A DNA stretch of 10,864 nucleotides from an uncultured Phycisphaeraceae bacterium. Its GTDB lineage: Bacteria > Planctomycetota > Phycisphaerae > Phycisphaerales > UBA1924. The stretch covers positions 1 to 10,864 of the forward strand of contig CAYMFP010000081.1 in assembly GCA_964389385.1 (NCBI GenBank). Reading direction: 5' to 3'. This document shows, piece after piece, positions 135 to 10,864 of this stretch. A model generated the notes under the pieces. The model was given only the letters and a program-made list of their open reading frames with translations, ran no database searches and was not told the origin of the DNA. Every line of letters starts with the position of its first letter. Positions within the stretch are counted from its first letter, which is position 1. A program made the translations under genes and the position numbers.

Positions 135-2795
135 GTGCTCGATCCGCGGGCCGACGCGTTCCTGGGGCTCGGCGTGTCGGACCCGGAGGATCTGGCCGGG
201 AAGGTGCTCGGGAAGTACACGCTGCTGCGGGTCATCGGGCGGGGCGGGATGGGGACGGTGTACCTGGCCCGCCAGCGCGATCTGGACCGCGAGGTCGCGG
301 TGAAGGTCTTCCCGCCGCACGCGCTGGGGTTCGACGCGAGGCTGCGGTTCGAGCGCGAGGTCCAGGCGCTGAGCCGGGTGAACCACCCGGGCGTGGCCCG
401 CATCTACGACGCGGGGCTGCACGCGGACGCGCACGCCCCGGTGCTGGCGCCCATCCCCTACTTCGCGATGGAGCTGGTCGACGGGCTGCCGATCACGGAG
501 CACGTCGCCCGGCACCGGCTCGGGCTGCGCGAGCGGCTGGCGCTGATGGCCGAGACGGCCGACGCGGTGCACGCCGCGCACCAGCGGGCGATCGTGCACC
601 GCGACCTGAAGCCCGGCAACGTGCTCGTGACGCCGCCGGAGGAGGCGCGCCCGTGGGGGGCGCCGAAGGTGCTGGACTTCGGGATCGCCAGGATGGTGCG
701 GGAGGACGCCCGCGAGCGGACGCTCTGGACCGGCGGGATCCTGCTCGGCACGCTCGGGTACATGGCGCCCGAGCAGGCCCGGGGCGAGGCCGACGAGATC
801 GACGTCCGGACGGACGTGTACGCCCTCGGCGTGATCCTGCACGAGGTGGTGACGGGGCGTCCGCTGCACCGGCTGGAGGGGATGCCGCTGACGGAGGCCC
901 TGCGGCGGGTGAGCGATCCTCGCCCGCCCGCGGTGTGCGTCCCTGACGACTTCACCGGCGGGGATCTGCGGAACGTGCTCTCCGTCGCGCTGGCGCCGGA
1001 GAAGGAGCGTCGTTACCCGTCGGCGGCCGCGCTGGCGGAGGATCTGCGGCGGCTGCTTCGGAGCGACCCGGTCTTCGCCCGCCCGGCGACGACGGTGTAC
1101 CGGGTCCGGAAGTTCGTGCGGCGCCACAGGGGGGGAGTCGCGGCGGCGTCGCTGGCCGCGGCCGGGCTGCTCGGGGGGACGGTGCTCGCGAGCGTCGGGC
1201 TCGTGCGCGAGCGTGCGGCGCGGGGGCGGGCCGAGTCGGCGCGGGCGGAGGCGCAGGAGCACGCGGCGATCGCTCAGCGGCAGCGCCGGCGGGCCGAGGC
1301 CTCGCGGGACTTCCTGACGCACATCGTCTGGTCCGCCGAGCCGGGGCAGATCGGGCGCGACGTCACCGTCGTGGACGCGGTGCGGTCGGCCCTCCCGGCG
1401 ATCGGGGCCTACGCCGGCGGGGATCCGGCGGCGGAGAGCGACCTGAGGCTCACCGTCGCGCAGACCCTCCGCAACCTCGGGCATCCGGAGGAGGCGGACG
1501 CGGAGTTCGCCGAGGCCGTGCGGCTGGCGGAGGAGGCCTTCGGCGTCGGCAGCCCGCAGGCGGTCGGTCCCGCCCTCGAGCGGGCGGACATGCTGACGGG
1601 CCTGGGACGCCTGGACGATGGCCGGGAGATCATCGAGCGGCAGGCGCGGTTCGTGGAGGCGATGCCGCCCGGGCACGAACGCGATCAGTTGGAGGTCGCG
1701 CTGGCGGTCAGCCGCGCGAACCTGCTGGGCGAGGAGGGGGCGTACGCGGAGAGCGCGCAGGCGTTCCGGGAGGTGCTGGCGCGGGTCAGGGCGGAGCCGA
1801 CGCTGCTCGACGCGTACAACCTGGACACGGTCCGCTCGCACTTCGGGCTCTCGCTGCTGTACGCGGGCGAGCTGCGCGAGGCGGAGGCCGTGCAGCGGGC
1901 CCTGGCGGCCGACCGCGCCGCGCGCCTCGGCCCCCTGCACCCGCGGACGCTGATCGTGCGGGAACATCTGGCCGGAACGCTGGTGGACCTCGGGGAGTTC
2001 GACGAGGCGCGGGCGATCCTGGAGGAGGTCATCGCCGAGGGCTCGCGGGCGTGGGGGCCGACGCATCCCTACACGCTCTCGGCGCGGCACGGGCTCGCGT
2101 CGCTCGAGGGCACGCGCGGGAACTACGCGGCCGCCGCGGAACTCGCCGGAGCGATCCTGAAGGACGCCGAGGGCGTGCTGCCGCCGGACGAGCCGTTCCT
2201 GCTGTTCGCGGCGAACACCCGCGCGGTGTCCCTGGCGGCCGAGAAGCGGTGGGAGGAGGCCCTGCCGGTGCTCCGGGACATGGTGCGGCGGGGGACGGCG
2301 ATCTACGGGGCCGAGCACCCGTACACGCTCTCGTTCCGGGCGAGCCTCGCCAACGGGCTGGGGGAGATGGGGGACGCCCGGGCGGCGATGGAGGAGCTGG
2401 AGGGGATCCTGGAGGTGCAGCGCCGGGTGCTCGGCGACGACGCGGAGCCGGTGCTGATCACGAGGAACAACCTCGCGATGTTCCACCTGGAGCTGGGCGA
2501 GCCGGAGCGGGCGGTGCCGGTGCTGGAGGAGGTGCTCGCGGCGGCGACGGCCGGGGAGCGGCGGGCGATCGGCGCGATCTTCCGGCGGAACCTGGGCCGC
2601 GCGCTCGCCGGAGCCCGGCGGTTCGAGGAGGCGGAGGGCCAGCTGCTGCTCGCGCACGACGAGGCCCGCGAGTGGCTGGACGAGAGCCAGGTCCGGCGCA
2701 CGGCGGAGTTCCTCGCCGAGCTGTACGCGGCGTGGGGCCGGGCGGAGGCCGAGGCCGTGTGGCGCGGCGAGGCCGCGGGCGCCGCGGCGGAGTAG
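135..2795 (+). CDS. Hanks-type Ser/Thr protein kinase with a single TM helix and a C-terminal TPR-like repeat sensor domain (886 aa, GTG start)
   Basis: Kinase motifs are all present: Gly-rich loop IGRGGMGTVYLA, VAVKV lysine, catalytic loop HRDLKPGNVLV, DFGIA and GTLGYMAPE. These are followed by the RKFVRRHR juxtamembrane motif, a hydrophobic helix GVAAASLAAAGLLGGTVLASVGLV, and about 500 aa of Ala/Leu/Glu/Arg-rich helical repeats. Codon third positions are nearly all G or C in this frame. Confidence 0.88.
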   Translation: MLDPRADAFLGLGVSDPEDLAGKVLGKYTLLRVIGRGGMGTVYLARQRDLDREVAVKVFPPHALGFDARLRFEREVQALSRVNHPGVARIYDAGLHADAHAPVLAPIPYFAMELVDGLPITEHVARHRLGLRERLALMAETADAVHAAHQRAIVHRDLKPGNVLVTPPEEARPWGAPKVLDFGIARMVREDARERTLWTGGILLGTLGYMAPEQARGEADEIDVRTDVYALGVILHEVVTGRPLHRLEGMPLTEALRRVSDPRPPAVCVPDDFTGGDLRNVLSVALAPEKERRYPSAAALAEDLRRLLRSDPVFARPATTVYRVRKFVRRHRGGVAAASLAAAGLLGGTVLASVGLVRERAARGRAESARAEAQEHAAIAQRQRRRAEASRDFLTHIVWSAEPGQIGRDVTVVDAVRSALPAIGAYAGGDPAAESDLRLTVAQTLRNLGHPEEADAEFAEAVRLAEEAFGVGSPQAVGPALERADMLTGLGRLDDGREIIERQARFVEAMPPGHERDQLEVALAVSRANLLGEEGAYAESAQAFREVLARVRAEPTLLDAYNLDTVRSHFGLSLLYAGELREAEAVQRALAADRAARLGPLHPRTLIVREHLAGTLVDLGEFDEARAILEEVIAEGSRAWGPTHPYTLSARHGLASLEGTRGNYAAAAELAGAILKDAEGVLPPDEPFLLFAANTRAVSLAAEKRWEEALPVLRDMVRRGTAIYGAEHPYTLSFRASLANGLGEMGDARAAMEELEGILEVQRRVLGDDAEPVLITRNNLAMFHLELGEPERAVPVLEEVLAAATAGERRAIGAIFRRNLGRALAGARRFEEAEGQLLLAHDEAREWLDESQVRRTAEFLAELYAAWGRAEAEAVWRGEAAGAAAE
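216..1049 (+). other. Protein kinase catalytic domain of the STK (residues about 28-305)
   Basis: Subdomain I through XI motifs can be read in order, and all catalytic residues (K, HRD, DFG, APE) are intact, so the kinase is predicted active. Confidence 0.8.
1137..1205 (+). other. Predicted transmembrane helix of the STK (residues about 335-357)
   Basis: A 23-aa hydrophobic stretch lies immediately after the basic RKFVRRHRGG motif. This gives the kinase-in, repeat-domain-out topology typical of membrane STKs. Confidence 0.7.
1317..2795 (+). other. TPR-like / tetratricopeptide-type helical repeat region of the STK (extracytoplasmic sensor or scaffold domain)
   Basis: Small and large hydrophobic residues recur with roughly 34-40 aa periodicity (for example LGLSLLYAGELREAEAVQRALAADRAARLGPLHPRTL, AAELAGAILKDAEG, LANGLGEMGDARAAMEELEGILEVQRRVLG). 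There are no enzymatic motifs. Confidence 0.6.
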
Positions 2796-2808
2796 GTGGC
2801 GGGCCGCC

Positions 2809-5800
2809 TCAGGACGCCGGGCCGGGCGGGCCGTCGGCGGGCGCGCGGGCGTCGAGCGTCGGGGCGGTGCGGCCGCTCGGCGGGGCGAGCCGCCCGGCGA
2901 CGCCCGAGGCGAGATCGGTCAGCGTCTGGTTCATCATCGCGAGCTGGGCGAGGAGCTTGGCGGCGGAGTCCTCGTCGCCCCCGAGGGCGGTGTGGCGCTG
3001 GAAGACGCGCTTGACCTCCTCCCACCGGGCGCGATCGGCGTCGGTGGCGCAGCCGAGCATGACCTTGAGCTTGAGGAGGTTCGCCTCGGCGTTCTTGGTG
3101 AGGGTCTGGGCGTCCTGCTCGTAGGCGGAGAGGATGAGCGACTCGAGTTCGGCGTCGTTCATGACGGGGCTGACGCGGGAGGCGAGGCGGTTCATGTTGC
3201 GGTAGGAGCCCTGGAGCAGGAACGGGGGCTCGGTGCGGTAGCGGTCGTCCTGCGCGGCCGAGCGGATGTACTGCTGGTTGACCCGCAGCACGACGTCGCG
3301 CACGCGGAGGAGCTTGCGCATGACCGAGATCATGTCGGCGATCTCGGCCGGGGCGTAGCCGCCCTTCAGGTCGGCCGTCGCGACGCCCGCCGGGGAGGGC
3401 GCGTCGTCGGCCGCGAGGCGAGCGATCGTGAGCACGTCCTCGCGGCCGTGGCGGGCGAGGGGGGCCAGGGCGGGGTTGCTGGTGACGGCGTTCTCGATGT
3501 AGGAGAGTTCGAAGGCCTCGCGCCGGTCGCCGATGATGTCGCCGAGGTTGTAGGTGTCGGCACGGTTGGCGAGCATGTCGGGGATGCGGAAGCGTTCGCC
3601 CGACTCGGTGTAGGGGTTGCCGGCCATGACGACGGCGACGCGGCGCCCGCGGAAGTCGTAGGTGCGCGGGCGCCCGCGGTAGACGCCCTCGATCTTGCGC
3701 TGGGCGTCGCAGAGGCTGATGAACTTCTGGAGGAACTCGGGGCTGACGTGCTGGATGTCGTCGACGTAGATGAGGATGTTGTCGCCCATCTCGAAGGCGA
3801 GGTTGAGCTTCTCCAGCTCCTCGCGCGCCGCGGCGTTGGGGGCGCTGGCGGGGTCGAGCGCGGTGACCTCGTGCCCGAGGGCGGGGCCGTTGATCTTCAT
3901 GAAGACGACGCCGAGCCGTGCCGCGACGTACTCCATCAGCGTCGTCTTGCCGTACCCGGGTGGGCTGATGAGCAGGAGCAGGCCGGAACGCTCGGCGCGG
4001 TTGTCGCCGGCGGCGCCCATCTGCTTCGCGAGGTTCGCGCCGATCAGGGGGAGGAAGACCTCGTCGACCAGGCGGTTGCGGACGAACCCCGGCGGGACGC
4101 GCGGGGTGAACTCCCCGATCCGCAGGCGGCGGCGGGCATCGTCGACCAGCCGCTGCTTGAGCCTCGTGAAGGCCTCGAAGCGCGGGACGCGGCGCTCGCG
4201 GAAGTCCGTGAGGCGGCGGTCGAACTCCGCGTAGTCGAGCGCGAGAACGCCGCCGTTGATCCGCGGGTGGTCGCCGACGAGCCCGGCGATCTCGCGGCGC
4301 GTGCTCTCGGGCACGATGCGGGCGCGGTCGAAGCCGGGGAGGCAGACGAGCCGCGCGGCCTCGTCGAGGAAGTCGGCCGCGGCGGGGCCGGCCGCGCCCA
4401 GCTCGCCGTTCGCGCTGGCGACGAACGCGTGCAGCCAGTCGCGGGCGAGGAGGTGGCGGGCGACGGGGTCGGCGGCGACGGCCTCGAGCGCGTGCTGGAG
4501 CCGGAGGGCGCTGTTCGTCTCGCGCAGGCGGGCGTGCAGGGCCTCGGCGAGCGCGGCGGCCTCCGGCGAAACGGCGAACGAATGGGCAGCGGGTGCGGCG
4601 CTCGGGCTCGCGTGGGGGTCGGCCGGGCCCGCGGCCGGGCCGATGAGTTCGGCGAAGAGGTAGGCCCCGGCGGCGGGGGCGTCGGCGGGGTCGAAGCCGT
4701 GCGCCGCGTGCGACTCGGCGAAGCCGGCGCACAGCGCCGTCAGCTCCGCGATGCACGCCTCCTGCCGCTCGGCGGACGGGAACGCGTGGCGGATCTGCCC
4801 GAAGCCGGCCAGGCGCGCGGCGAGCAGGGGCTTGCGCGGGTGCTCCCAGGCTTCCCACGCGAGCAGGGCGAGGGCGCGGGCGCGCGAGGGGTAGCGGAGC
4901 AGCCCGATGCGGGCCCGCAGCTCGAGCAGCGTCCGGAGGATCAGCGCCGCGTCGTGGTCGTGCACGCCCTTGGTGTACGACTCGGCGTACCGCGGGGCCA
5001 TGAAACGCTGCACGGTCCGGAGGAGGTCGTCCTCGCCGGCTCCGACGGCGCCCTCCGCGGCCCCGGCGGGCTCGGGGATCTCCCCGGCCTCGATCGCGCG
5101 CTGCACCAGGTGGGCGAGGTACTCGCCGCGGTAGACCTCCGGGCTCTCGCTGACGACGTGCTGGTCCCAGCAGTCGCGGGCCTCGTCCAGGCCCGGGTCG
5201 TCGAGCGGCTCGAAGAAGGCGGTGCCGGAGAGGTGGAGCTGGATGCGCCCCTCGCGCGTCGTCGTCGTGAGGTCGACCGCCTGCGTGTTGATGGCGAGCG
5301 GGAACCGCCCGAAGCGGGCGACGGGGCGGCCGTCGAGCGGCTCGTCGCGGTCGCGCAGGCGGCGGTCGGCCTCCTCCCGCACGGAGTCGAGGCGCCCGGC
5401 GATCTCGTCGGCCCGAACGCCCTCGCCGAGTTCGCGCAGCTCCGCGAGCGTCGAGCGGAGCTTCTCGACCATCGGGTCGCCGGCGAAGTACGCGTGGATC
5501 GCCTCGGCGGAGCCGAGCCGCTCGGCCCGGGTGCGCACGCCCTTGAGCACGCGCTCGGCGGCCGCGGCGAGGTTCTCGCCCCGCCTCGCCCGGGCCTCGG
5601 CGAGGCGCAGGCGCCGGTCCTCGAAGGCGGAGTGGATCTCCTCGCGCTTCTCGGCGAGGCGTTCGGCGAACTCGTCGAACTCCGCGAACCGGGCCTCGAC
5701 CTCCTCGAGCTGGAGCATCACGCGCGTGAGCTGCTCCTCGGTCTTCTCCGGCGTGTCGGAGAGTTCGAGCGCCCCGGCGACCGTCTGGTCGAGCAGGCGC

Positions 5801-7929
5801 AGGCGGCTGGCGAACTCGGCGGCGCCCTCCGTGCGCGAGAGGTCGCGCAGGCGGCCCTGCAGCCGCGAACGCGCGGCGTTCAGCTCGGCGAAGACGCCCG
5901 AGACCGCGTCGACGATCGCGGTGCGTTGCGTGGCGTCCTCGATCTTCAGGCCGCCGACGACGTCGATCAGCATCTCCAGCTCGCCGGCGGACTTCTGGAT
6001 CGCCTCGTCGAGCCGCTTGGCGTCGGCGGCGCGGTCGATGCCGTCCACGCGCGCGGCGTGCTCGCGGGCGGCCGCGCGGTACGGATCGAGCGCGTCGTCG
6101 CGCAGCAGGAAGCCGACGGCCCGCCGCGAGACGCCGTCGGCCTGCTCGACGACGCGGGCCTCGAGCCGGTCGATCAGGCCGGGGTCGGCGTAGCGCAGCT
6201 CGCGCAGGGCGATGATCTCGCCGCGGAGCGTCCGGAGCCCGGCGAGGGCGGCGACGAAGTCGCCGATGCCGTCGTACATCCGGGCGTGGTTCTCGGCGAC
6301 GAGGTCGGCGGTCCTCCGCTCCGCCGCCTCGGTCTGCTCGAGCGTGGCGCGGCGGATGGCGCGGACCTTCTCGAACTCGCCCACGGCCGCCTCGGCCGTC
6401 GCGCGGATCGCCCCGAGCGTCTCGGCGAGGCCCCCGGCCGCCGCGTCCTTGAGCCAGTAGTACGAGTCGAGCACCTCCTGCGCCTCGCGGGCGATGTCGA
6501 TGTAGAGGTCGGCGTACGGGTCGCGGCGCTCGACGAGGTTCAGGATCGCGTGGCACTCGGCCATGCCGCGGACGATGTCGCGGTTGCCGACCTTGGCCAG
6601 GTACGAGTCCCGCGCGTGCACCTGCTCGCGCCCCGGCGCCGCGTACGGCGTGCGCCAGAGCTGCAGGGCGTGGTGCCGCTGCGGCTCGTCGCCAGCCCGG
6701 AAGAGCACCATCCGCCCGTCCTCGAGCAGGCTGAACCCGTGGCAGACGACCGGCGTCCCGGCGTCCTGCGCGATCACGTTGTACCCGACGAGGGCGTACT
6801 CGCCCGTGCCGCGGTGGTAGAAGACGAAGAGGTGGTCCTCCCCGTTCGGGGCCGGCACGCGGCGCTCGAAGACGACGCCCTCGGGGACGTTGGGGAACGC
6901 CTGCAGCCGCCCGCTCTCCAGGTAGAACCCGCCGGCGAAGAGCACGCCGTGGTCGTCGGGCAGGAGCAGGGCCGCGTGGGCGAGCCCGTCGGCCCGGCGC
7001 ACCTCGCGCAGCTTGCGGTTGTAGATGAAGTACCGGTGCCGCCGCTCCTGGTAGGGGCGGATCCGCAGCAGGATGAGGCTGCCCACCTGCGCGTACGCGA
7101 TCTCCGCGTCGTCGAGCCCCTGGTCCGGGTTCTCGACGGGCTCGGCGTAGAGCCCGCGCCCGGTCGACGTGTTGTCCTCGGCCTTGATCGTGAGGTCGCC
7201 GCCGATGCAGTCGACGAAGAGCGTGTCGAGGACCGCCACGTGCGGGTGGGCGCCGGGGCGGTGGTCGTCGCGCGTCGTCTGCTTCCAGTCGACCTCGTGC
7301 GGCGCGGGGTAGCGGAGCTCGTGGTCGGAGCGGTTGTCGACGTAGGCCAGGCGCGGCGCGCCGTCCGCGCCCGCCTCCATCCGCCACTTGAAGGCCTTGA
7401 AGTCGTCCGCGTCGCGCCCGATGCGGAACTTCATGTAGAGGAACGCGCCGCGGACGAAGAACTTCGCGAACGTCGCGCCCTTGTAGAAGCGGTACAGGTC
7501 GCGGAACTCCTTGCGGAACTGCTCGTCGCCGAGCAGCTCCGAGAGCGGCAGCTCCGCGTAGCCGGCGGAGCCGTCCCCGGCGTCCTCCATCCGGTAGAGC
7601 GCGAAGACGTCCTCGGGCGCGATCTCCTGCTTGAGCCCGAACGTGACGTTGTACCCGAGCAGCACGCGGCCGCCGATCGAGACGAGATCCCGCGCCACGC
7701 AGTTGTGGGCCGTGGTGACGCGCTGCGTGTCGAGCAGCTCCGTCTCCACCGTGCCGAAGACGCGCTTGCGCTCCTCGTTCAGCGCCGCGAGCCGGCGGCG
7801 CAGCTCCGCCCCCTGCGCCGCGAGGCGCTGCCGGATGATCTCGTACGCCCCCTGCTCGAGGCGCTCGCCGGCCCCCTCCCCCGCGGCGGCCCCGCCGGAC
7901 GCCGGATTCTGCACGCTCTGCTCGGCCAT
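2809..7929 (-). CDS. Giant (1706 aa) multidomain protein: beta-rich N-terminal domain, long coiled coil, helical linker, and a C-terminal MoxR/AAA_5-like AAA+ ATPase. Uncharacterised flotillin-associated ATPase.
   Basis: ATG at 7927-7929 is preceded by GGTGAGCAGGA. Composition is Asp/Glu/Leu/Ala-rich rather than shadow-frame-like along the whole length. Walker A LLLISPPGYGKTTLMEY, Walker B NILIYVDDIQH, sensor-1 VVMAGNPY and an Arg in RIPDMLANRAD are present. No hydrophobic TM segment is seen. The gene lies 98 bp downstream of the flotillin gene on the same strand. Confidence 0.82.
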   Translation of the reverse strand: MAEQSVQNPASGGAAAGEGAGERLEQGAYEIIRQRLAAQGAELRRRLAALNEERKRVFGTVETELLDTQRVTTAHNCVARDLVSIGGRVLLGYNVTFGLKQEIAPEDVFALYRMEDAGDGSAGYAELPLSELLGDEQFRKEFRDLYRFYKGATFAKFFVRGAFLYMKFRIGRDADDFKAFKWRMEAGADGAPRLAYVDNRSDHELRYPAPHEVDWKQTTRDDHRPGAHPHVAVLDTLFVDCIGGDLTIKAEDNTSTGRGLYAEPVENPDQGLDDAEIAYAQVGSLILLRIRPYQERRHRYFIYNRKLREVRRADGLAHAALLLPDDHGVLFAGGFYLESGRLQAFPNVPEGVVFERRVPAPNGEDHLFVFYHRGTGEYALVGYNVIAQDAGTPVVCHGFSLLEDGRMVLFRAGDEPQRHHALQLWRTPYAAPGREQVHARDSYLAKVGNRDIVRGMAECHAILNLVERRDPYADLYIDIAREAQEVLDSYYWLKDAAAGGLAETLGAIRATAEAAVGEFEKVRAIRRATLEQTEAAERRTADLVAENHARMYDGIGDFVAALAGLRTLRGEIIALRELRYADPGLIDRLEARVVEQADGVSRRAVGFLLRDDALDPYRAAAREHAARVDGIDRAADAKRLDEAIQKSAGELEMLIDVVGGLKIEDATQRTAIVDAVSGVFAELNAARSRLQGRLRDLSRTEGAAEFASRLRLLDQTVAGALELSDTPEKTEEQLTRVMLQLEEVEARFAEFDEFAERLAEKREEIHSAFEDRRLRLAEARARRGENLAAAAERVLKGVRTRAERLGSAEAIHAYFAGDPMVEKLRSTLAELRELGEGVRADEIAGRLDSVREEADRRLRDRDEPLDGRPVARFGRFPLAINTQAVDLTTTTREGRIQLHLSGTAFFEPLDDPGLDEARDCWDQHVVSESPEVYRGEYLAHLVQRAIEAGEIPEPAGAAEGAVGAGEDDLLRTVQRFMAPRYAESYTKGVHDHDAALILRTLLELRARIGLLRYPSRARALALLAWEAWEHPRKPLLAARLAGFGQIRHAFPSAERQEACIAELTALCAGFAESHAAHGFDPADAPAAGAYLFAELIGPAAGPADPHASPSAAPAAHSFAVSPEAAALAEALHARLRETNSALRLQHALEAVAADPVARHLLARDWLHAFVASANGELGAAGPAAADFLDEAARLVCLPGFDRARIVPESTRREIAGLVGDHPRINGGVLALDYAEFDRRLTDFRERRVPRFEAFTRLKQRLVDDARRRLRIGEFTPRVPPGFVRNRLVDEVFLPLIGANLAKQMGAAGDNRAERSGLLLLISPPGYGKTTLMEYVAARLGVVFMKINGPALGHEVTALDPASAPNAAAREELEKLNLAFEMGDNILIYVDDIQHVSPEFLQKFISLCDAQRKIEGVYRGRPRTYDFRGRRVAVVMAGNPYTESGERFRIPDMLANRADTYNLGDIIGDRREAFELSYIENAVTSNPALAPLARHGREDVLTIARLAADDAPSPAGVATADLKGGYAPAEIADMISVMRKLLRVRDVVLRVNQQYIRSAAQDDRYRTEPPFLLQGSYRNMNRLASRVSPVMNDAELESLILSAYEQDAQTLTKNAEANLLKLKVMLGCATDADRARWEEVKRVFQRHTALGGDEDSAAKLLAQLAMMNQTLTDLASGVAGRLAPPSGRTAPTLDARAPADGPPGPAS
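3490..4062 (-). other. AAA+ ATPase module (residues about 1290-1480). Walker A maps to about 3940-3966 and Walker B to about 3748-3777.
   Basis: The reverse complement of 3937-3966 reads ATCAGCCCACCCGGGTACGGCAAGACGACG, which translates to ISPPGYGKTT. The reverse complement of 3748-3777 translates to ILIYVDDIQH. The downstream VVMAGNPYTESGERFRIPDMLANRAD resembles the MoxR ATQNP...LDRF region. Confidence 0.7.
5320..6492 (-). other. Extended coiled-coil / helical region of the giant ATPase (residues about 480-870)
   Basis: About 400 aa are dominated by Glu, Arg, Ala and Leu with heptad-like spacing (for example EQLTRVMLQLEEVEARFAEFDEFAERLAEKREEIHSAFEDRRLRLAEARARRGENL). There are no Pro or Gly clusters. 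Confidence 0.55.
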
Positions 7930-7978
7930 TCCTGCTCACCGCTCCCGATTGCCCCGCCCCGGCGCATCCCGATGCAAG

Positions 7979-8010
7979 CCGGCCGGCGCCGCGGACGCGG
8001 CGCCGGCCGG
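7979..8010 (-). promoter_or_regulatory. Perfect 15-bp inverted repeat (CCGGCCGGCGCCGCG ga CGCGGCGCCGGCCGG) forming a GC-only stem-loop in the flotillin-ATPase intergenic region. Candidate intra-operon attenuator, RNA processing site or operator.
   Basis: By direct reading the two arms are exact reverse complements, separated by 2 nt. The repeat sits 17 nt after the flotillin stop and about 49 nt before the ATPase start. No U-tract follows on the transcribed strand. Confidence 0.45.
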
Positions 8011-8027
8011 ACACGAGTTCGACGCGC

Positions 8028-10112
8028 TCAGTTCGCCAGGCCGTCCTTGGAGGCGCCGTTGGCGCCCCCGCCCAGCCCGCCGGCCGCCGCGGCGAGGCGC
8101 GGGGCGAGCCCCAGCTGCTCGAGCGTCCGGTTCCCGAGGCCCGCGGCCTCGATCGCCCCCATCAGCCGCCGCAGCTCCGCCCGCTCGCCGTCGTCGCGGG
8201 AGGCCGCGAGCAGCTTCGCCGCCAGCGCCGCCACGCCGAGGTTCTTCAGGTCCTCGCTCCCGACGCCGAACTTGTCGACGAACGCCTGGAGCTGCGCCCT
8301 GAAGTGCTCCCCGTCGCCGGTGAAGAACGTGTCCCGCACCGTGCGGATGGTGGGGGAGTTCTCGACCGTGCGCTCCACGCTCTTGCCGAGCGTGATCGAG
8401 TTGACGATCTGCTCGAAGAAGCGGTTCTCGCCGCCGACGATGTCGATCCGCGCGCTCTTGAGCGCCTCGCCCAGCACCCGCGCCTGCTGCTCGGCGATGT
8501 CCTTCTGCACGTCGATCTGCGCCAGCTCGACCTGCAGGTCGCGGTTCAGGCGGAGCTTGAACTCCTCGTGGTCGCGCCCGACCCCGTCGAGCACCTTCAT
8601 CGCCTCGGCCTTCGCGCGGGTCGCCCCGGCGTCCGCCTCGCCCTTCTGGCGCAGGATCTCCGCCTCGGCCCGGCCCTTCTGCGCGATGACCTCGGCCTCC
8701 GACTCCCCGTACTTGCGGATCGAGCCGGCCTTCGCCTCCATCACCTGCGCCTCGGCCAGGCCCTCGGCCGCCGCGTCCGCGGTCTTCGCCTCGGCCAGCT
8801 TCATCGTCGCCAGCGCCTCCTTCTCCGCGGCGGCGCGCCTCGCCTCCGCGTCGATCAGCACCTGGTCCGCGTGGAACTTCGCCGCCGACTTCGCCGCCTC
8901 GGCCGCCTTGATCTCCTTGACCATCGCCTCCTCGGCCTCGGCCTCCGCGGCCTTGACCTTCACGCCCTTGGCCCGCTCCGCGGCCGCGAACTCCCGCGTG
9001 TCGTTGATCCGCTCCTCCTCCTCCACGACCGCCCGCTGCACCGCGACGCGCTCGCGGATCACGTCCTGGATCTTCTTCTGCTCGATCTCGACCGCCTTGA
9101 GCTTCTCGATCCGCGCCAGCTCCACCACCCGCTCGCGCTCGGTCTGCTCCAGCTCCTGCTCGCGCTTGACGCGCTCGGCCTCGACCGCGTCGGCCCGCTG
9201 CTTGGCCCGCTCGGCGATGAGCACCGCCCGGAGCTTGTTCTGCTCCTGGATCCCGAGCAGCTCCTCCGCCTCGAGCCGGGCCCGCTCGCTCTTGACCTTC
9301 TCCTCCTCGCGGACCTTGTCCGCCTCCGCCTGCTCGCGGAACTGCGCGATCTCGATCTCGCGCTTCTGCCGCGCCTCGACCTCGGCCTGCTGGCGTTCCA
9401 GCTCCAGGATCGCCTCCCGCGCCTCGACGTCCTGCTTCTTGATCGTCTTCTCGCGCTCGCGGTTGATGCTGTTCGCCAGGATCAGCTGCGTCGCCGTCCG
9501 CTCCGTGATCTTCTTGATGCCCTCGGCGTCGAGGATGTTGTCCGGGTCCAGCGCCTCGACCGGCGTCTGCTCCAGGTAGTCGATCGCCGCGTCGTCGAGG
9601 ATGTACCCGTTCAGGTCCTGCCCGATGTGCCCGAGGATCCGCTCCTTGAACTGCTCGCGCTCGGAGTACAGGTCCGTGAATTCGAACTGCTTGCCGACCG
9701 TCTTCAACGCCTCGCTGAACTTCGCGTCGAACAGGTCGCGCAGCTTGTCCTCGTCGCTCGCCCGGGCGCAGCCGATCGTCTGCGCGACCTTCAGCACGTC
9801 CTCCGCCGCGTTGTTCACCCGCACGAAGAACGCCACCTTGATGTCCGCCCGAACGTTGTCCGCGCAGATCAGGCCCTCGCTCCCGTGCCGGTAGATCTCC
9901 ACCCGCTTGAGCGAGATGTCCATCGTCTCCTTGCGGTGCACCACGGGGAGGATCAGCAGCCCCGTGAAGCTCACCCGCACGCCCCCGATGCCCGTGCGCA
10001 CCAGCGCCGTGCCCTGCTGCACCTTCTGGTAGCACTGCACCAGCATCGCCACGCCCGCGACGAGCACGAGCGCCAGCAACAGCCCGCCGGCGACGATGAT
10101 CCCGATCTCCAT
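8028..10112 (-). CDS. Flotillin (SPFH/band-7 family, YqiK/FloT-like), 694 aa, with an N-terminal membrane anchor, SPFH domain, long EA-rich coiled coil and a Gly/Ala-rich C-terminal tail
   Basis: The N-terminus MEIGIIVAGGLLLALVLVAGVAMLV is a membrane hairpin or helix. The SPFH-like core follows (VRTGIGGVRVSFTGLLILPVVHRKETMDISLKRVEI...ADIKVAFFVRV...). Then come roughly 330 aa of EA/ER/EK-repeat coiled coil (AEAEAEEAMVKEIKAAEAAKSAAK and others). A purine-rich RBS (GGGAAGGGAAGAG) lies just upstream of the ATG. The stop TGA is at 8028-8030. Confidence 0.9.
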   Translation of the reverse strand: MEIGIIVAGGLLLALVLVAGVAMLVQCYQKVQQGTALVRTGIGGVRVSFTGLLILPVVHRKETMDISLKRVEIYRHGSEGLICADNVRADIKVAFFVRVNNAAEDVLKVAQTIGCARASDEDKLRDLFDAKFSEALKTVGKQFEFTDLYSEREQFKERILGHIGQDLNGYILDDAAIDYLEQTPVEALDPDNILDAEGIKKITERTATQLILANSINREREKTIKKQDVEAREAILELERQQAEVEARQKREIEIAQFREQAEADKVREEEKVKSERARLEAEELLGIQEQNKLRAVLIAERAKQRADAVEAERVKREQELEQTERERVVELARIEKLKAVEIEQKKIQDVIRERVAVQRAVVEEEERINDTREFAAAERAKGVKVKAAEAEAEEAMVKEIKAAEAAKSAAKFHADQVLIDAEARRAAAEKEALATMKLAEAKTADAAAEGLAEAQVMEAKAGSIRKYGESEAEVIAQKGRAEAEILRQKGEADAGATRAKAEAMKVLDGVGRDHEEFKLRLNRDLQVELAQIDVQKDIAEQQARVLGEALKSARIDIVGGENRFFEQIVNSITLGKSVERTVENSPTIRTVRDTFFTGDGEHFRAQLQAFVDKFGVGSEDLKNLGVAALAAKLLAASRDDGERAELRRLMGAIEAAGLGNRTLEQLGLAPRLAAAAGGLGGGANGASKDGLAN

Positions 10113-10115
10113 CGG

Positions 10116-10130
10116 CTCTTCCCTTCCCGC
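10116..10130 (-). promoter_or_regulatory. Shine-Dalgarno-like purine-rich tract (GGGAAGGGAAGAG) upstream of the flotillin start
   Basis: The reverse complement of the region just upstream of the ATG reads CCCGGCGGGAAGGGAAGAGCCGATG. Spacing from the ATG is about 4-10 nt. Confidence 0.5.
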
Positions 10131-10166
10131 CGGGCGGCGGCTCGCCGCGCCGGTCTCTCGACGGCC

Positions 10167-10778
10167 TCAGGCCGCCGCTTCCTGTTCCCGTTCACGAACC
10201 CCGTCCCCGCCCGCACCTTGGCCCGGAGCCGCGTCCGCCCCGCCCTCCACCTCCGCCGCGTACGCCCGCAGCGCCCGGTCCGCCCGCGCGGCCCGCAGCG
10301 CCCGCTCCCGCACCGCGGCCGGATCCCGCGCCTCCTCCGGGGCGATCCGCTCCACCAGGTACACCCCGCCCGGCTCGCGACCGAACACGACCGCCGTGTC
10401 CCCCCGCCCCAGCGCCGGACGCCCCGCCCGCACCCGCGCCTCGATCACCAGCGGCGCCCCGCCCGTCGCCACCTCCGCACGGCCGAAGCCCTCGTCCAGG
10501 CGGGTCGTCGCCACCGTGCACGGCCGCCCCAGGATCGCCCGCCGCCAGTCCCGGTCATCCCCCTCGGCGCTGCGGTACAACGCCCGCACCGGCAGCGTGA
10601 CGACCTTCGCCACCGCCCCGCCGACCACCGCCGCCGGGACCGCCGCCGCCGCCACCTCCCAGCCCGAGAGCCCCAGCCGCAGCGTCAGCAGCAGGCTCAG
10701 CGTCCAGACGACGATCAGCACCACGCTCAGCACGACCGACGCGGGCACCTCGCCCAGGTTCAGCAGCCGCCCGAGCAC
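10167..10778 (-). CDS. NfeD-like (YuaF/YqiJ-type) small membrane protein: two N-terminal TM helices plus a C-terminal OB-fold-like beta-barrel. Start uncertain, because the frame stays open into the terminal low-complexity tract.
   Basis: Two hydrophobic helices are VVLSVVLIVVWTLSLLLTLRLGL and AAAAVPAAVVGGAVAKVVTLPV. The C-terminal segment GRPCTVATTRLDEGFGRAEVATGGAPLVIEARVRAGRPALGRGDTAVVFGREPGGVYLVERI fits the NfeD beta-barrel pattern of spaced Gly and Val residues with a final GxxLxVE. The gene is immediately upstream of the flotillin gene on the same strand, with a 54-bp gap, which is the conserved nfeD-flotillin order. Confidence 0.65.
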   Translation of the reverse strand: MLGRLLNLGEVPASVVLSVVLIVVWTLSLLLTLRLGLSGWEVAAAAVPAAVVGGAVAKVVTLPVRALYRSAEGDDRDWRRAILGRPCTVATTRLDEGFGRAEVATGGAPLVIEARVRAGRPALGRGDTAVVFGREPGGVYLVERIAPEEARDPAAVRERALRAARADRALRAYAAEVEGGADAAPGQGAGGDGVREREQEAAA

Positions 10779-10794
10779 GAGACGCAGGTGCGCC

Positions 10795-10864
10795 CCGCCC
10801 CCCCCCCCCCCCCGGGGCCCCGCCCCCCCCCGGCCCCGCCCCCCGCCCCCCCCCCCCGCCCCCG
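10795..10864. repeat. C-rich homopolymer/low-complexity tract at the window end (a C17-18 run, then CCCCG/CCCCGG units); mirror of the G-rich tract at the start
   Basis: Direct reading finds C-runs of 17, 9 and 11 and no coding-like structure. On the minus strand this is poly-G. Confidence 0.5.

Follow-up and report, generated by a model that had tools for sequence, protein, structure and literature searches.

The window analysed here, a stretch of 10,864 nucleotides from an uncultured Phycisphaeraceae bacterium (contig CAYMFP010000081.1), carries a three-gene operon for a small inner-membrane protein of the YqiJ/YuaF type, a flotillin of the YqiK type and a soluble ATPase of giant size with a C-terminal AAA+ module, and this operon is a conserved unit. 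It is already described by comparative genomics, and the window holds a new, divergent, high-GC member that is Phycisphaerae-like. We read it, with a little better than even confidence, as a widespread membrane-stress or membrane-remodelling operon in which the ATPase would remodel flotillin scaffolds (and PspA scaffolds too); the gene identities, the architecture and the synteny are observed. An earlier note, made from the letters of this stretch alone, had described three co-directional genes on the minus strand with gaps of 54 bp and 98 bp, and the sequence bears this layout out. From the 5' end of the operon onwards, its parts are as follows.

10167 to 10864, minus strand: gene for a YqiJ/YuaF-type (NfeD-like) small inner-membrane protein, 5'-partial, with its stop codon at 10167-10169.
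10113 to 10166, minus strand: intergenic gap of 54 bp between the YqiJ-like and flotillin genes.
8028 to 10112, minus strand: gene for a YqiK-type flotillin (SPFH/band-7) of 694 amino acids, called from the frame of its third-position G+C content (GC3), the hhalign match to YqiK and a transmembrane (TM) segment.
7930 to 8027, minus strand: intergenic gap of 98 bp between the flotillin and ATPase genes.
2809 to 7929, minus strand: gene for the giant soluble ATPase of the DUF3686-DUF7902-AAA family, 1706 amino acids, called from the GC3 frame and Pfam.

The evidence for a conserved unit lies in the neighbourhoods of other members of the ATPase family. Searches detected 1738 homologues, the best of them 55% identical, most of them from Planctomycetota and nearly all 1.7-1.9 thousand amino acids long and alike in Pfam architecture. 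When the N-terminal 600 amino acids served as query in an exhaustive search, 806 cluster representatives came back (252 with E <= 1e-30), and since the full-length representatives span 1590-2036 amino acids, the N-terminal propeller described below occurs essentially always in this architecture. Our survey covered 80 loci, whose genomes belong to Planctomycetota, Verrucomicrobiota, Bacteroidota, Desulfobacterota, Kiritimatiellota, Omnitrophota and Clostridia. Of these 80 loci, 70, in at least six phyla, encode a flotillin homologue (50-55% identity) upstream of the ATPase gene and on its strand; four of the ten flotillin-negative loci have less than 250 bp of upstream sequence, and among the informative loci, defined as those with at least 1.4 kb upstream (n = 76), the rate is 70/76 (92%). 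When all open reading frames (ORFs) of the loci were clustered, the ATPase was recovered in 76 loci, the flotillin in 65 and the YqiJ-like protein in 54, the last always encoded directly upstream of the flotillin gene, and no fourth family conserved across phyla emerged from the 80 loci. In the homologous loci the YqiJ-like and flotillin genes adjoin closely: the median gap is 13 bp, and an overlap of 4 bp is frequent. The ATPase genes are thus enriched beside flotillin and NfeD-type genes, and the unit that the earlier note had proposed is therefore real. The nearest flotillin and ATPase homologues of the window's own proteins agree in the length of their longest contig (the flotillin and ATPase entries P0123 and P0021 at 174675 bp, P0139 and P0001 at 2951637 bp, P0137 and P0024 at 5539117 bp), which suggests that they share contigs.

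The identity of the flotillin comes from profile comparison. A family profile built from 43 syntenic orthologues matches E. coli YqiK in hhalign with a probability of 100% (E 4.8e-41, 382 columns, 31% identity), and the alignment spans the SPFH domain and the coiled coil, residues 21-426 of 694. The protein begins with an N-terminal TM helix (residues 1-29); the SPFH domain comes next, then a long coiled coil rich in E and A, and last the C-terminal region. On this match the earlier assignment as a flotillin stands, although the direct search for the Pfam domains Band_7 and Flot, by which it was to be recognised, missed the window protein: the 694-residue sequence itself has no match in Pfam (Band_7 included), NCBIfam or PADLOC. 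Band_7 is matched directly by 6 of the 43 orthologues (best E 7e-14), Flot by neither the window flotillin nor its orthologues, and a search of the PDB with both the single sequence and the profile returned only a weak match, to the coiled-coil region of QmcA. Close homologues are named 'flotillin family protein' or 'YqiK' by their sources.

The small membrane protein was identified in the same way. Its family profile (41 sequences) matches E. coli YqiJ over nearly the full length, 187 columns, with a probability of 96% and E 3e-9, and the match extends over the C-terminal beta-rich part of the protein. The label 'NfeD-like' may be kept on the strength of this profile match; the 203-residue protein itself finds nothing in Pfam (at E up to 10, NfeD PF01957 included), NCBIfam or PADLOC. 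Two TM segments are visible in the window copy; alignment with 40 syntenic homologues shows that the first TM helix and an acidic D-x-D linker are missing, the homologues having about 65 additional N-terminal residues relative to the window ORF. Because the ORF is still open at the window end and the N-terminus of the homologues is missing, the gene is 5'-partial. The GTG at 10778, where the gene had earlier been taken to begin, is no credible start, and the gene is cut by the end of the window. The last approximately 65 bases (10800-10864) are almost pure C on the plus strand, and so G on the minus strand, in frame with the YqiJ-like ORF; this run looks like a contig-end or poly-G sequencing artefact and not like true coding sequence.

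The third protein is the giant ATPase. Pfam places DUF3686 at residues 42-491 (E 4e-175), DUF7902 at residues 612-695 (E 1.5e-25), and both AAA_5 (28.3 bits) and AAA (28.5 bits) at residues 1318-1441, the two AAA matches being above their gathering cut-offs; AAA_22 and RuvB_N are matched as well. The structure was modelled with AlphaFold2 as two overlapping pieces from a 56-sequence alignment, which reached a mean predicted local distance difference test score (pLDDT) of 87.7 and 83.1, and from these models, together with the family matches, the following parts can be told apart.

Residues 20-58, minus strand: N-terminal helix (AlphaFold2).
6652 to 7740, minus strand, residues 64-426: beta-propeller, the core of DUF3686 (AlphaFold2 and Foldseek).
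5350 to 6603, minus strand, residues 443-860: helical bundle and long antiparallel coiled-coil hairpins, with helices of up to 58 residues (AlphaFold2).
5845 to 6096, minus strand, residues 612-695: DUF7902, within the coiled-coil region (Pfam).
Residues 870-909, minus strand: small beta domain (AlphaFold2).
4330 to 5130, minus strand, residues 934-1200: alpha-helical middle domain, pLDDT mostly 85-95, with no family match (AlphaFold2).
2890 to 4074, minus strand, residues about 1286-1680: AAA+ module, followed by a disordered tail (Pfam, PDB and Foldseek).
3940 to 3963, minus strand: Walker A, PPGYGKTT (from the translation).
3757 to 3774, minus strand, residues 1386-1391: Walker B, LIYVDD, then IQH (from the translation).

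The propeller is modelled as about seven four-stranded beta groups. Sensor-1 is N1438 and R1456 is a candidate arginine finger; both, like Walker A and Walker B, are invariant in the family (15-56 homologues aligned). The maximum Kyte-Doolittle value in a 19-residue window is 1.27, with no TM-like segment, and the protein is therefore soluble, as the earlier note had supposed. The C-terminal AAA+ ATPase of that note is likewise confirmed by the Pfam matches, the Walker motifs and the AAA+ fold of the model, and its coiled coil of roughly 400 residues by the long helices at residues 443-860; what it had overlooked in the domain layout is the N-terminal DUF3686 domain of 450 residues, a beta-propeller. 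Protease, nuclease and helicase domains are absent from the ATPase in Pfam and NCBIfam searches.

The clade to which the AAA+ module belongs is less simply stated. The earlier note had called the ATPase MoxR-like while remarking that no vWA protein, the usual partner of MoxR-type ATPases, accompanies it. The second half of that statement holds, as neither the window nor the conserved neighbour clusters of the 80 loci include a vWA protein, whereas the first does not hold at the level of sequence: AAA_3 is not matched, and the PDB sequence matches, all weak, are to Rix7, Cdc48, Rpt3 and RuvB. With neither an AAA_3 match nor a vWA partner, MoxR is a fold-level resemblance and not a membership. 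The AlphaFold2 model has a beta-hairpin (residues 1412-1425) just ahead of the sensor-1 strand and, after beta2, a loop of 18 residues. A pre-sensor-1 insert of this kind marks the RuvB/HslU, MoxR, dynein and MCM clades of AAA+ proteins and is absent from the classic clade. Foldseek searches with the C-terminal piece returned dynein heavy chains, RuvB, spastin and NorQ/CbbQ, and the best target-normalised TM-scores of the AAA+ core were to NorQ/CbbQ (0.54-0.60). Judged from the model, a MoxR-like resemblance to NorQ/CbbQ would thus be defensible at the level of the fold.

The earlier note had presented the operon as an undescribed system, which it is not. Ravi et al. (mSystems 2024, PMC11237479; bioRxiv 2020.09.24.301986) reported an operon combining CesT/Tir-PspA with YqiJ/YuaF, Band-7/flotillin and propeller/coiled-coil/AAA+ proteins, together with widely distributed 'abbreviated operons' without CesT/Tir-PspA, the three-gene form among them. 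Their Table S3 gives a prototype in Dokdonia donghaensis, the neighbourhood of ANH61663.1, with the same gene order; they describe the repressor of the Bacteroidota operons as LexA-like, with a cHTH and a protease domain; and they link the operon to phage-shock (PSP) envelope stress, the same functional prediction as is made here. The gene order and the domain architectures of the window's three genes are those of the published operon: a YqiJ/YuaF-type gene upstream, a flotillin with TM segment and band-7 domain, and an ATPase with propeller, coiled coil and AAA+ module are all found. The Bacteroidota loci of our survey reproduce the full published form, while the window, which ends inside the first gene, shows the three-gene form only and its ATPase is without the C-terminal tail motif of most members. 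The value of the window is confirmatory: it supplies a divergent member, puts numbers on the synteny and backs the published domain call at the level of the fold.

An extended form is seen in 17 of the surveyed loci, all from Bacteroidota, in which a PspA/IM30 gene (Pfam PspA_IM30, E 8.7e-41) extends the operon; a CesT_Tir_1 gene (E 1e-56) occurs in 13 of these 17 and a divergent HTH_3 repressor gene in 15. The position of PspA divides them as follows.

L009, L029, L032, L035, L040, L041, L047, L052, L054-L056, L061, L062, L072, L074 and L076: PspA upstream of the flotillin gene.
L025: PspA downstream of the ATPase, on the opposite strand.

This extension by PspA, CesT_Tir_1 and HTH_3 genes suggests stress-inducible regulation of the whole module in Bacteroidota, where the ATPase travels with PspA and a CesT-like chaperone in addition to the flotillin pair.

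Comparison with better known systems shows what is shared and what is peculiar to this operon. The first two genes are homologous to the pairs yqiJ-yqiK of E. coli and yuaF-floT of B. subtilis, with the same order and a tight, often overlapping junction, but in E. coli yqiK is not followed by an ATPase gene, and the window flotillin has diverged too far to be recognised by the Band_7 and Flot models of Pfam. HflK/C-FtsH likewise pairs an SPFH scaffold functionally with an AAA+ machine; FtsH, however, is membrane-anchored and has a zinc protease, whereas the window ATPase is soluble, protease-free and equipped with a propeller and a coiled-coil arm, and its AAA+ core shows in the model the pre-sensor-1 hairpin that the classic clade is without. 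MoxR-type ATPases such as RavA, NorQ and CbbQ are alike in the AAA+ core fold, in the AAA_5 match and in their presumed role as remodellers, but they differ in the AAA_3 match and the vWA/MIDAS partner that the window ATPase is without, and its N-terminal extension of 1280 residues is unlike that of any MoxR. PspA belongs to the ESCRT-III (Snf7/CdvB) superfamily. In the Bacteroidota form an AAA+ gene stands beside the gene of a membrane-remodelling polymer, as with Vps4/CdvC acting on ESCRT-III (Snf7/CdvB); this is an analogy of logic only, since the window ATPase has no MIT domain and is of another AAA+ clade, and PspA is absent from most loci.

The mechanism, which we infer, can be put together from these parts. 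The N-terminal helix would anchor the flotillin, and its SPFH domain and coiled coil would oligomerise into a ring or a cage at the membrane's cytoplasmic side, as SPFH proteins are known to do. The YqiJ-like protein would be the integral-membrane partner of the flotillin, and the two genes are probably translationally coupled in most genomes, a picture that draws on established knowledge of such pairs. The ATPase may dock on the flotillin scaffold through its propeller and its coiled-coil arm and, where PspA is co-encoded, on PspA polymers too. It would assemble into an AAA+ ring and, during envelope stress, spend ATP on remodelling, disassembling or recycling the scaffold or on pulling clients out of it, an action that could be likened in its logic to that of Vps4 on ESCRT-III or of MoxR-type remodellers. 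We infer the physical interaction, the oligomeric state, the substrate and the stress induction of the operon proteins alike. That the flotillin scaffold is the functional partner of the ATPase, as the earlier note had suggested, seems to us the most economical reading, with contact between the two proteins presumed. More tentatively, we propose that the ATPase is a dedicated ATP-driven machine for the assembly or disassembly of flotillin (SPFH) cages, and of PspA/ESCRT-III polymers where PspA is co-encoded; we would call this possible, though doubtful as it stands. If true, it would make the ATPase a bacterial functional counterpart of Vps4/NSF and, among remodellers of SPFH scaffolds, the first known to consume energy.

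The operon bears on the question of what role bacterial flotillins have and how SPFH cages come to be assembled, opened and recycled. To our knowledge, HflK/C-FtsH is the only SPFH-AAA+ pair understood mechanistically. A soluble AAA+ protein of 1700 residues that travels with a YqiJ-YqiK-type pair in at least six phyla offers an experimental handle on the SPFH question.

Several observations weigh against the reading of the operon as a remodelling system for flotillin and PspA scaffolds. The position of the catalytic Walker B glutamate is occupied by an aspartate, invariant in the 56 aligned family members; because of this residue, ATP turnover may be slow, or regulated or regulatory in character. 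The window ATPase also is without a C-terminal tail of about 70 residues with the motif VVNKIP..L.VL..QF.LM.GW..PL, which is kept in at least 90% of the aligned homologues and of which tblastn with homologue tails found no trace in any frame of the window. The flotillin-ATPase junction is looser than that between the first two genes, with a median of 126 bp and more than 300 bp in 24 of 62 loci, and in several loci, mostly from Bacteroidota, one to four small unrelated ORFs lie within it. About six of the 76 ATPase genes (about 8%) have no flotillin nearby, and many YqiJ-YqiK pairs, E. coli's among them, occur without such an ATPase. PspA was seen in Bacteroidota loci only, and most loci are without it; in the window itself, hidden Markov models built from the Bacteroidota PspA, CesT and HTH proteins found none of these in the six-frame translation, and as the window ends inside the first gene, PspA could lie upstream or be absent. 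Finally, our literature searches returned no interaction, expression or phenotype study of any member of the operon.

An alternative that draws on the same parts is client-directed quality control in the manner of HflK/C-FtsH, in which the flotillin cage corrals membrane-protein clients and the ATPase unfolds or extracts these clients and not the scaffold. The pairing of an SPFH cage with an AAA+ protein has its established precedent in HflK/C-FtsH, the propeller could bind substrates, and the AAA matches at the sequence level include the unfoldases Cdc48 and Rpt3. The ATPase, however, has neither the protease domain nor the TM anchor of FtsH; the pre-sensor-1 hairpin of its model and its best fold matches, to NorQ/CbbQ and RuvB, oppose a threading unfoldase of the classic clade; and no conserved client gene appears in the neighbourhood of the 80 loci. 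On this evidence we consider quality control of clients unlikely, and we keep to the remodelling of scaffolds as the preferred reading.

The earlier note had also raised an anti-phage module, and one can imagine a flotillin-ATPase pair that senses infection and disrupts the membrane in abortive infection, as defence systems often contain giant coiled-coil NTPases and membrane effectors. In single loci a few of the flanking genes do match PADLOC models (SspH, SWIM_XIII, MzaA, RT/TIR), and a Ser/Thr kinase encoded in the window matches the PD-T4-6 models, but any Hanks-type kinase would match these, and the kinase is in none of the 80 loci. Against PADLOC-DB v2 only the ATPase among the three proteins has matches, both marginal (IetA at E 0.003, ZorA at E 0.0095). 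Recurrent defence context is absent: among 133 flanking ORFs, taken from 57 loci, no defence family turns up more than four times, and most of the neighbours are housekeeping genes such as those for sulfatases, ABC transporters, citrate synthase, FabI and DAHP synthase. With about 50% identity across phyla and matched divergence of flotillin and ATPase, the operon looks instead like a vertically kept cellular module, and a role in defence is in our view very improbable.

We give hardly any credence to a DNA repair ATPase with incidental membrane-gene neighbours, which would follow the Pfam description of DUF3686 and the NCBI product names and could appeal to weak RuvB_N/RuvB matches at the P-loop and to the LexA-like cHTH+protease repressor beside the Bacteroidota operons, since the resemblance to RuvB goes no further than the generic AAA+ core (22 bits with the RuvB equivalog, whose cut-off is 282), DNA-binding, nuclease, helicase and SMC-type domains are absent in Pfam and NCBIfam, in 92% of the informative loci the ATPase has membrane proteins as its conserved partners and our literature searches found no paper that backs the name. 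The database name 'DNA repair ATPase' is thereby shown to be unsupported, and we reject it, as neither a repair-type domain nor supporting literature was found.

The gene layout itself had to be read with care, as the G+C content of the window is 75% and long ORFs run in every frame. A GC3 frame plot resolves four real genes, one kinase gene on the plus strand and the three co-directional genes on the minus strand: third-position G+C reaches 0.95-1.00 exactly in the frames of the minus-strand ORFs 2809-7929, 8028-10112 and 10167-10778. Two long ORFs, one on the minus strand at 2303-8014 (1903 amino acids) and one on the plus strand at 2992-9579 (2195 amino acids), are ruled out by the same plot as shadow ORFs. 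A consensus scan of the window for promoters and terminators gave nothing useful at such a G+C content. Two further features of the window complete the picture.

7979 to 8010, minus strand: G+C hairpin in the flotillin-ATPase gap, a perfect 14-bp stem with a 4-nt loop and no U-tract.
135 to 2795, plus strand: gene for a Ser/Thr kinase with C-terminal TPR repeats (Pfam Pkinase and TPR).

The hairpin was left uncalled by the consensus terminator scan because it has no T-run. The 111-nt gap region in which it stands folds at -62.7 kcal/mol (z -2.1), and going by sequence the hairpin may be an attenuator within the operon or an element that stabilises the mRNA. Because of this 14-bp GC hairpin and the looser flotillin-ATPase junction, we speculate that the ATPase might be made in smaller amounts than the scaffold.

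The kinase gene is convergent with the operon, and 13 bp separate its end from the stop codon of the ATPase gene. Phycisphaerales kinases of 931-957 amino acids are its best relatives, with 54% identity; it was found in 0 of the 80 ATPase loci, which places it outside the conserved module. Kinase, flotillin and ATPase all have their best relatives in Phycisphaerae/Planctomycetota, at 54-65% identity, so that an uncultured bacterium of this lineage with very high G+C is the probable source.

Some details of single loci and homologues may be added. The insertions between the flotillin and ATPase genes encode DMP19-like and DUF3997 proteins, a lipoprotein and others without a family, and genes seem to insert at this junction with particular frequency; examples lie at the following positions.

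L016: 8612 to 9695.
L031: 6992 to 8155.
L039: 8085 to 9383.
L054: 8519 to 9943.
L074: 7838 to 9738.

In loci L014, L024 and L036 (also L006, L021 and L068) the available upstream sequence of 1.4-10 kb contains neither a flotillin nor a YqiJ-like gene, and in L014 the ATPase reading frame looks disrupted. Two listed homologues of 1711 amino acids, P0066 and P0085, are like the window ATPase without the C-terminal tail motif. P0085, a full-length member of the family with 49% identity, comes from the EukProt collection of eukaryotic proteomes, and Pfam also lists DUF3686 in eukaryotes; this entry could be a contamination or a horizontal transfer. Contig look-ups with the exact sequences of the window's ATPase and flotillin, aimed at the region upstream of the first gene, returned nothing. 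A 7.5-kb ENA metagenome contig (sample ERZ795039) carries the identical flotillin gene (entry P0121) together with the first 1690 codons of the ATPase, and it offers 238 bp upstream of the flotillin gene.

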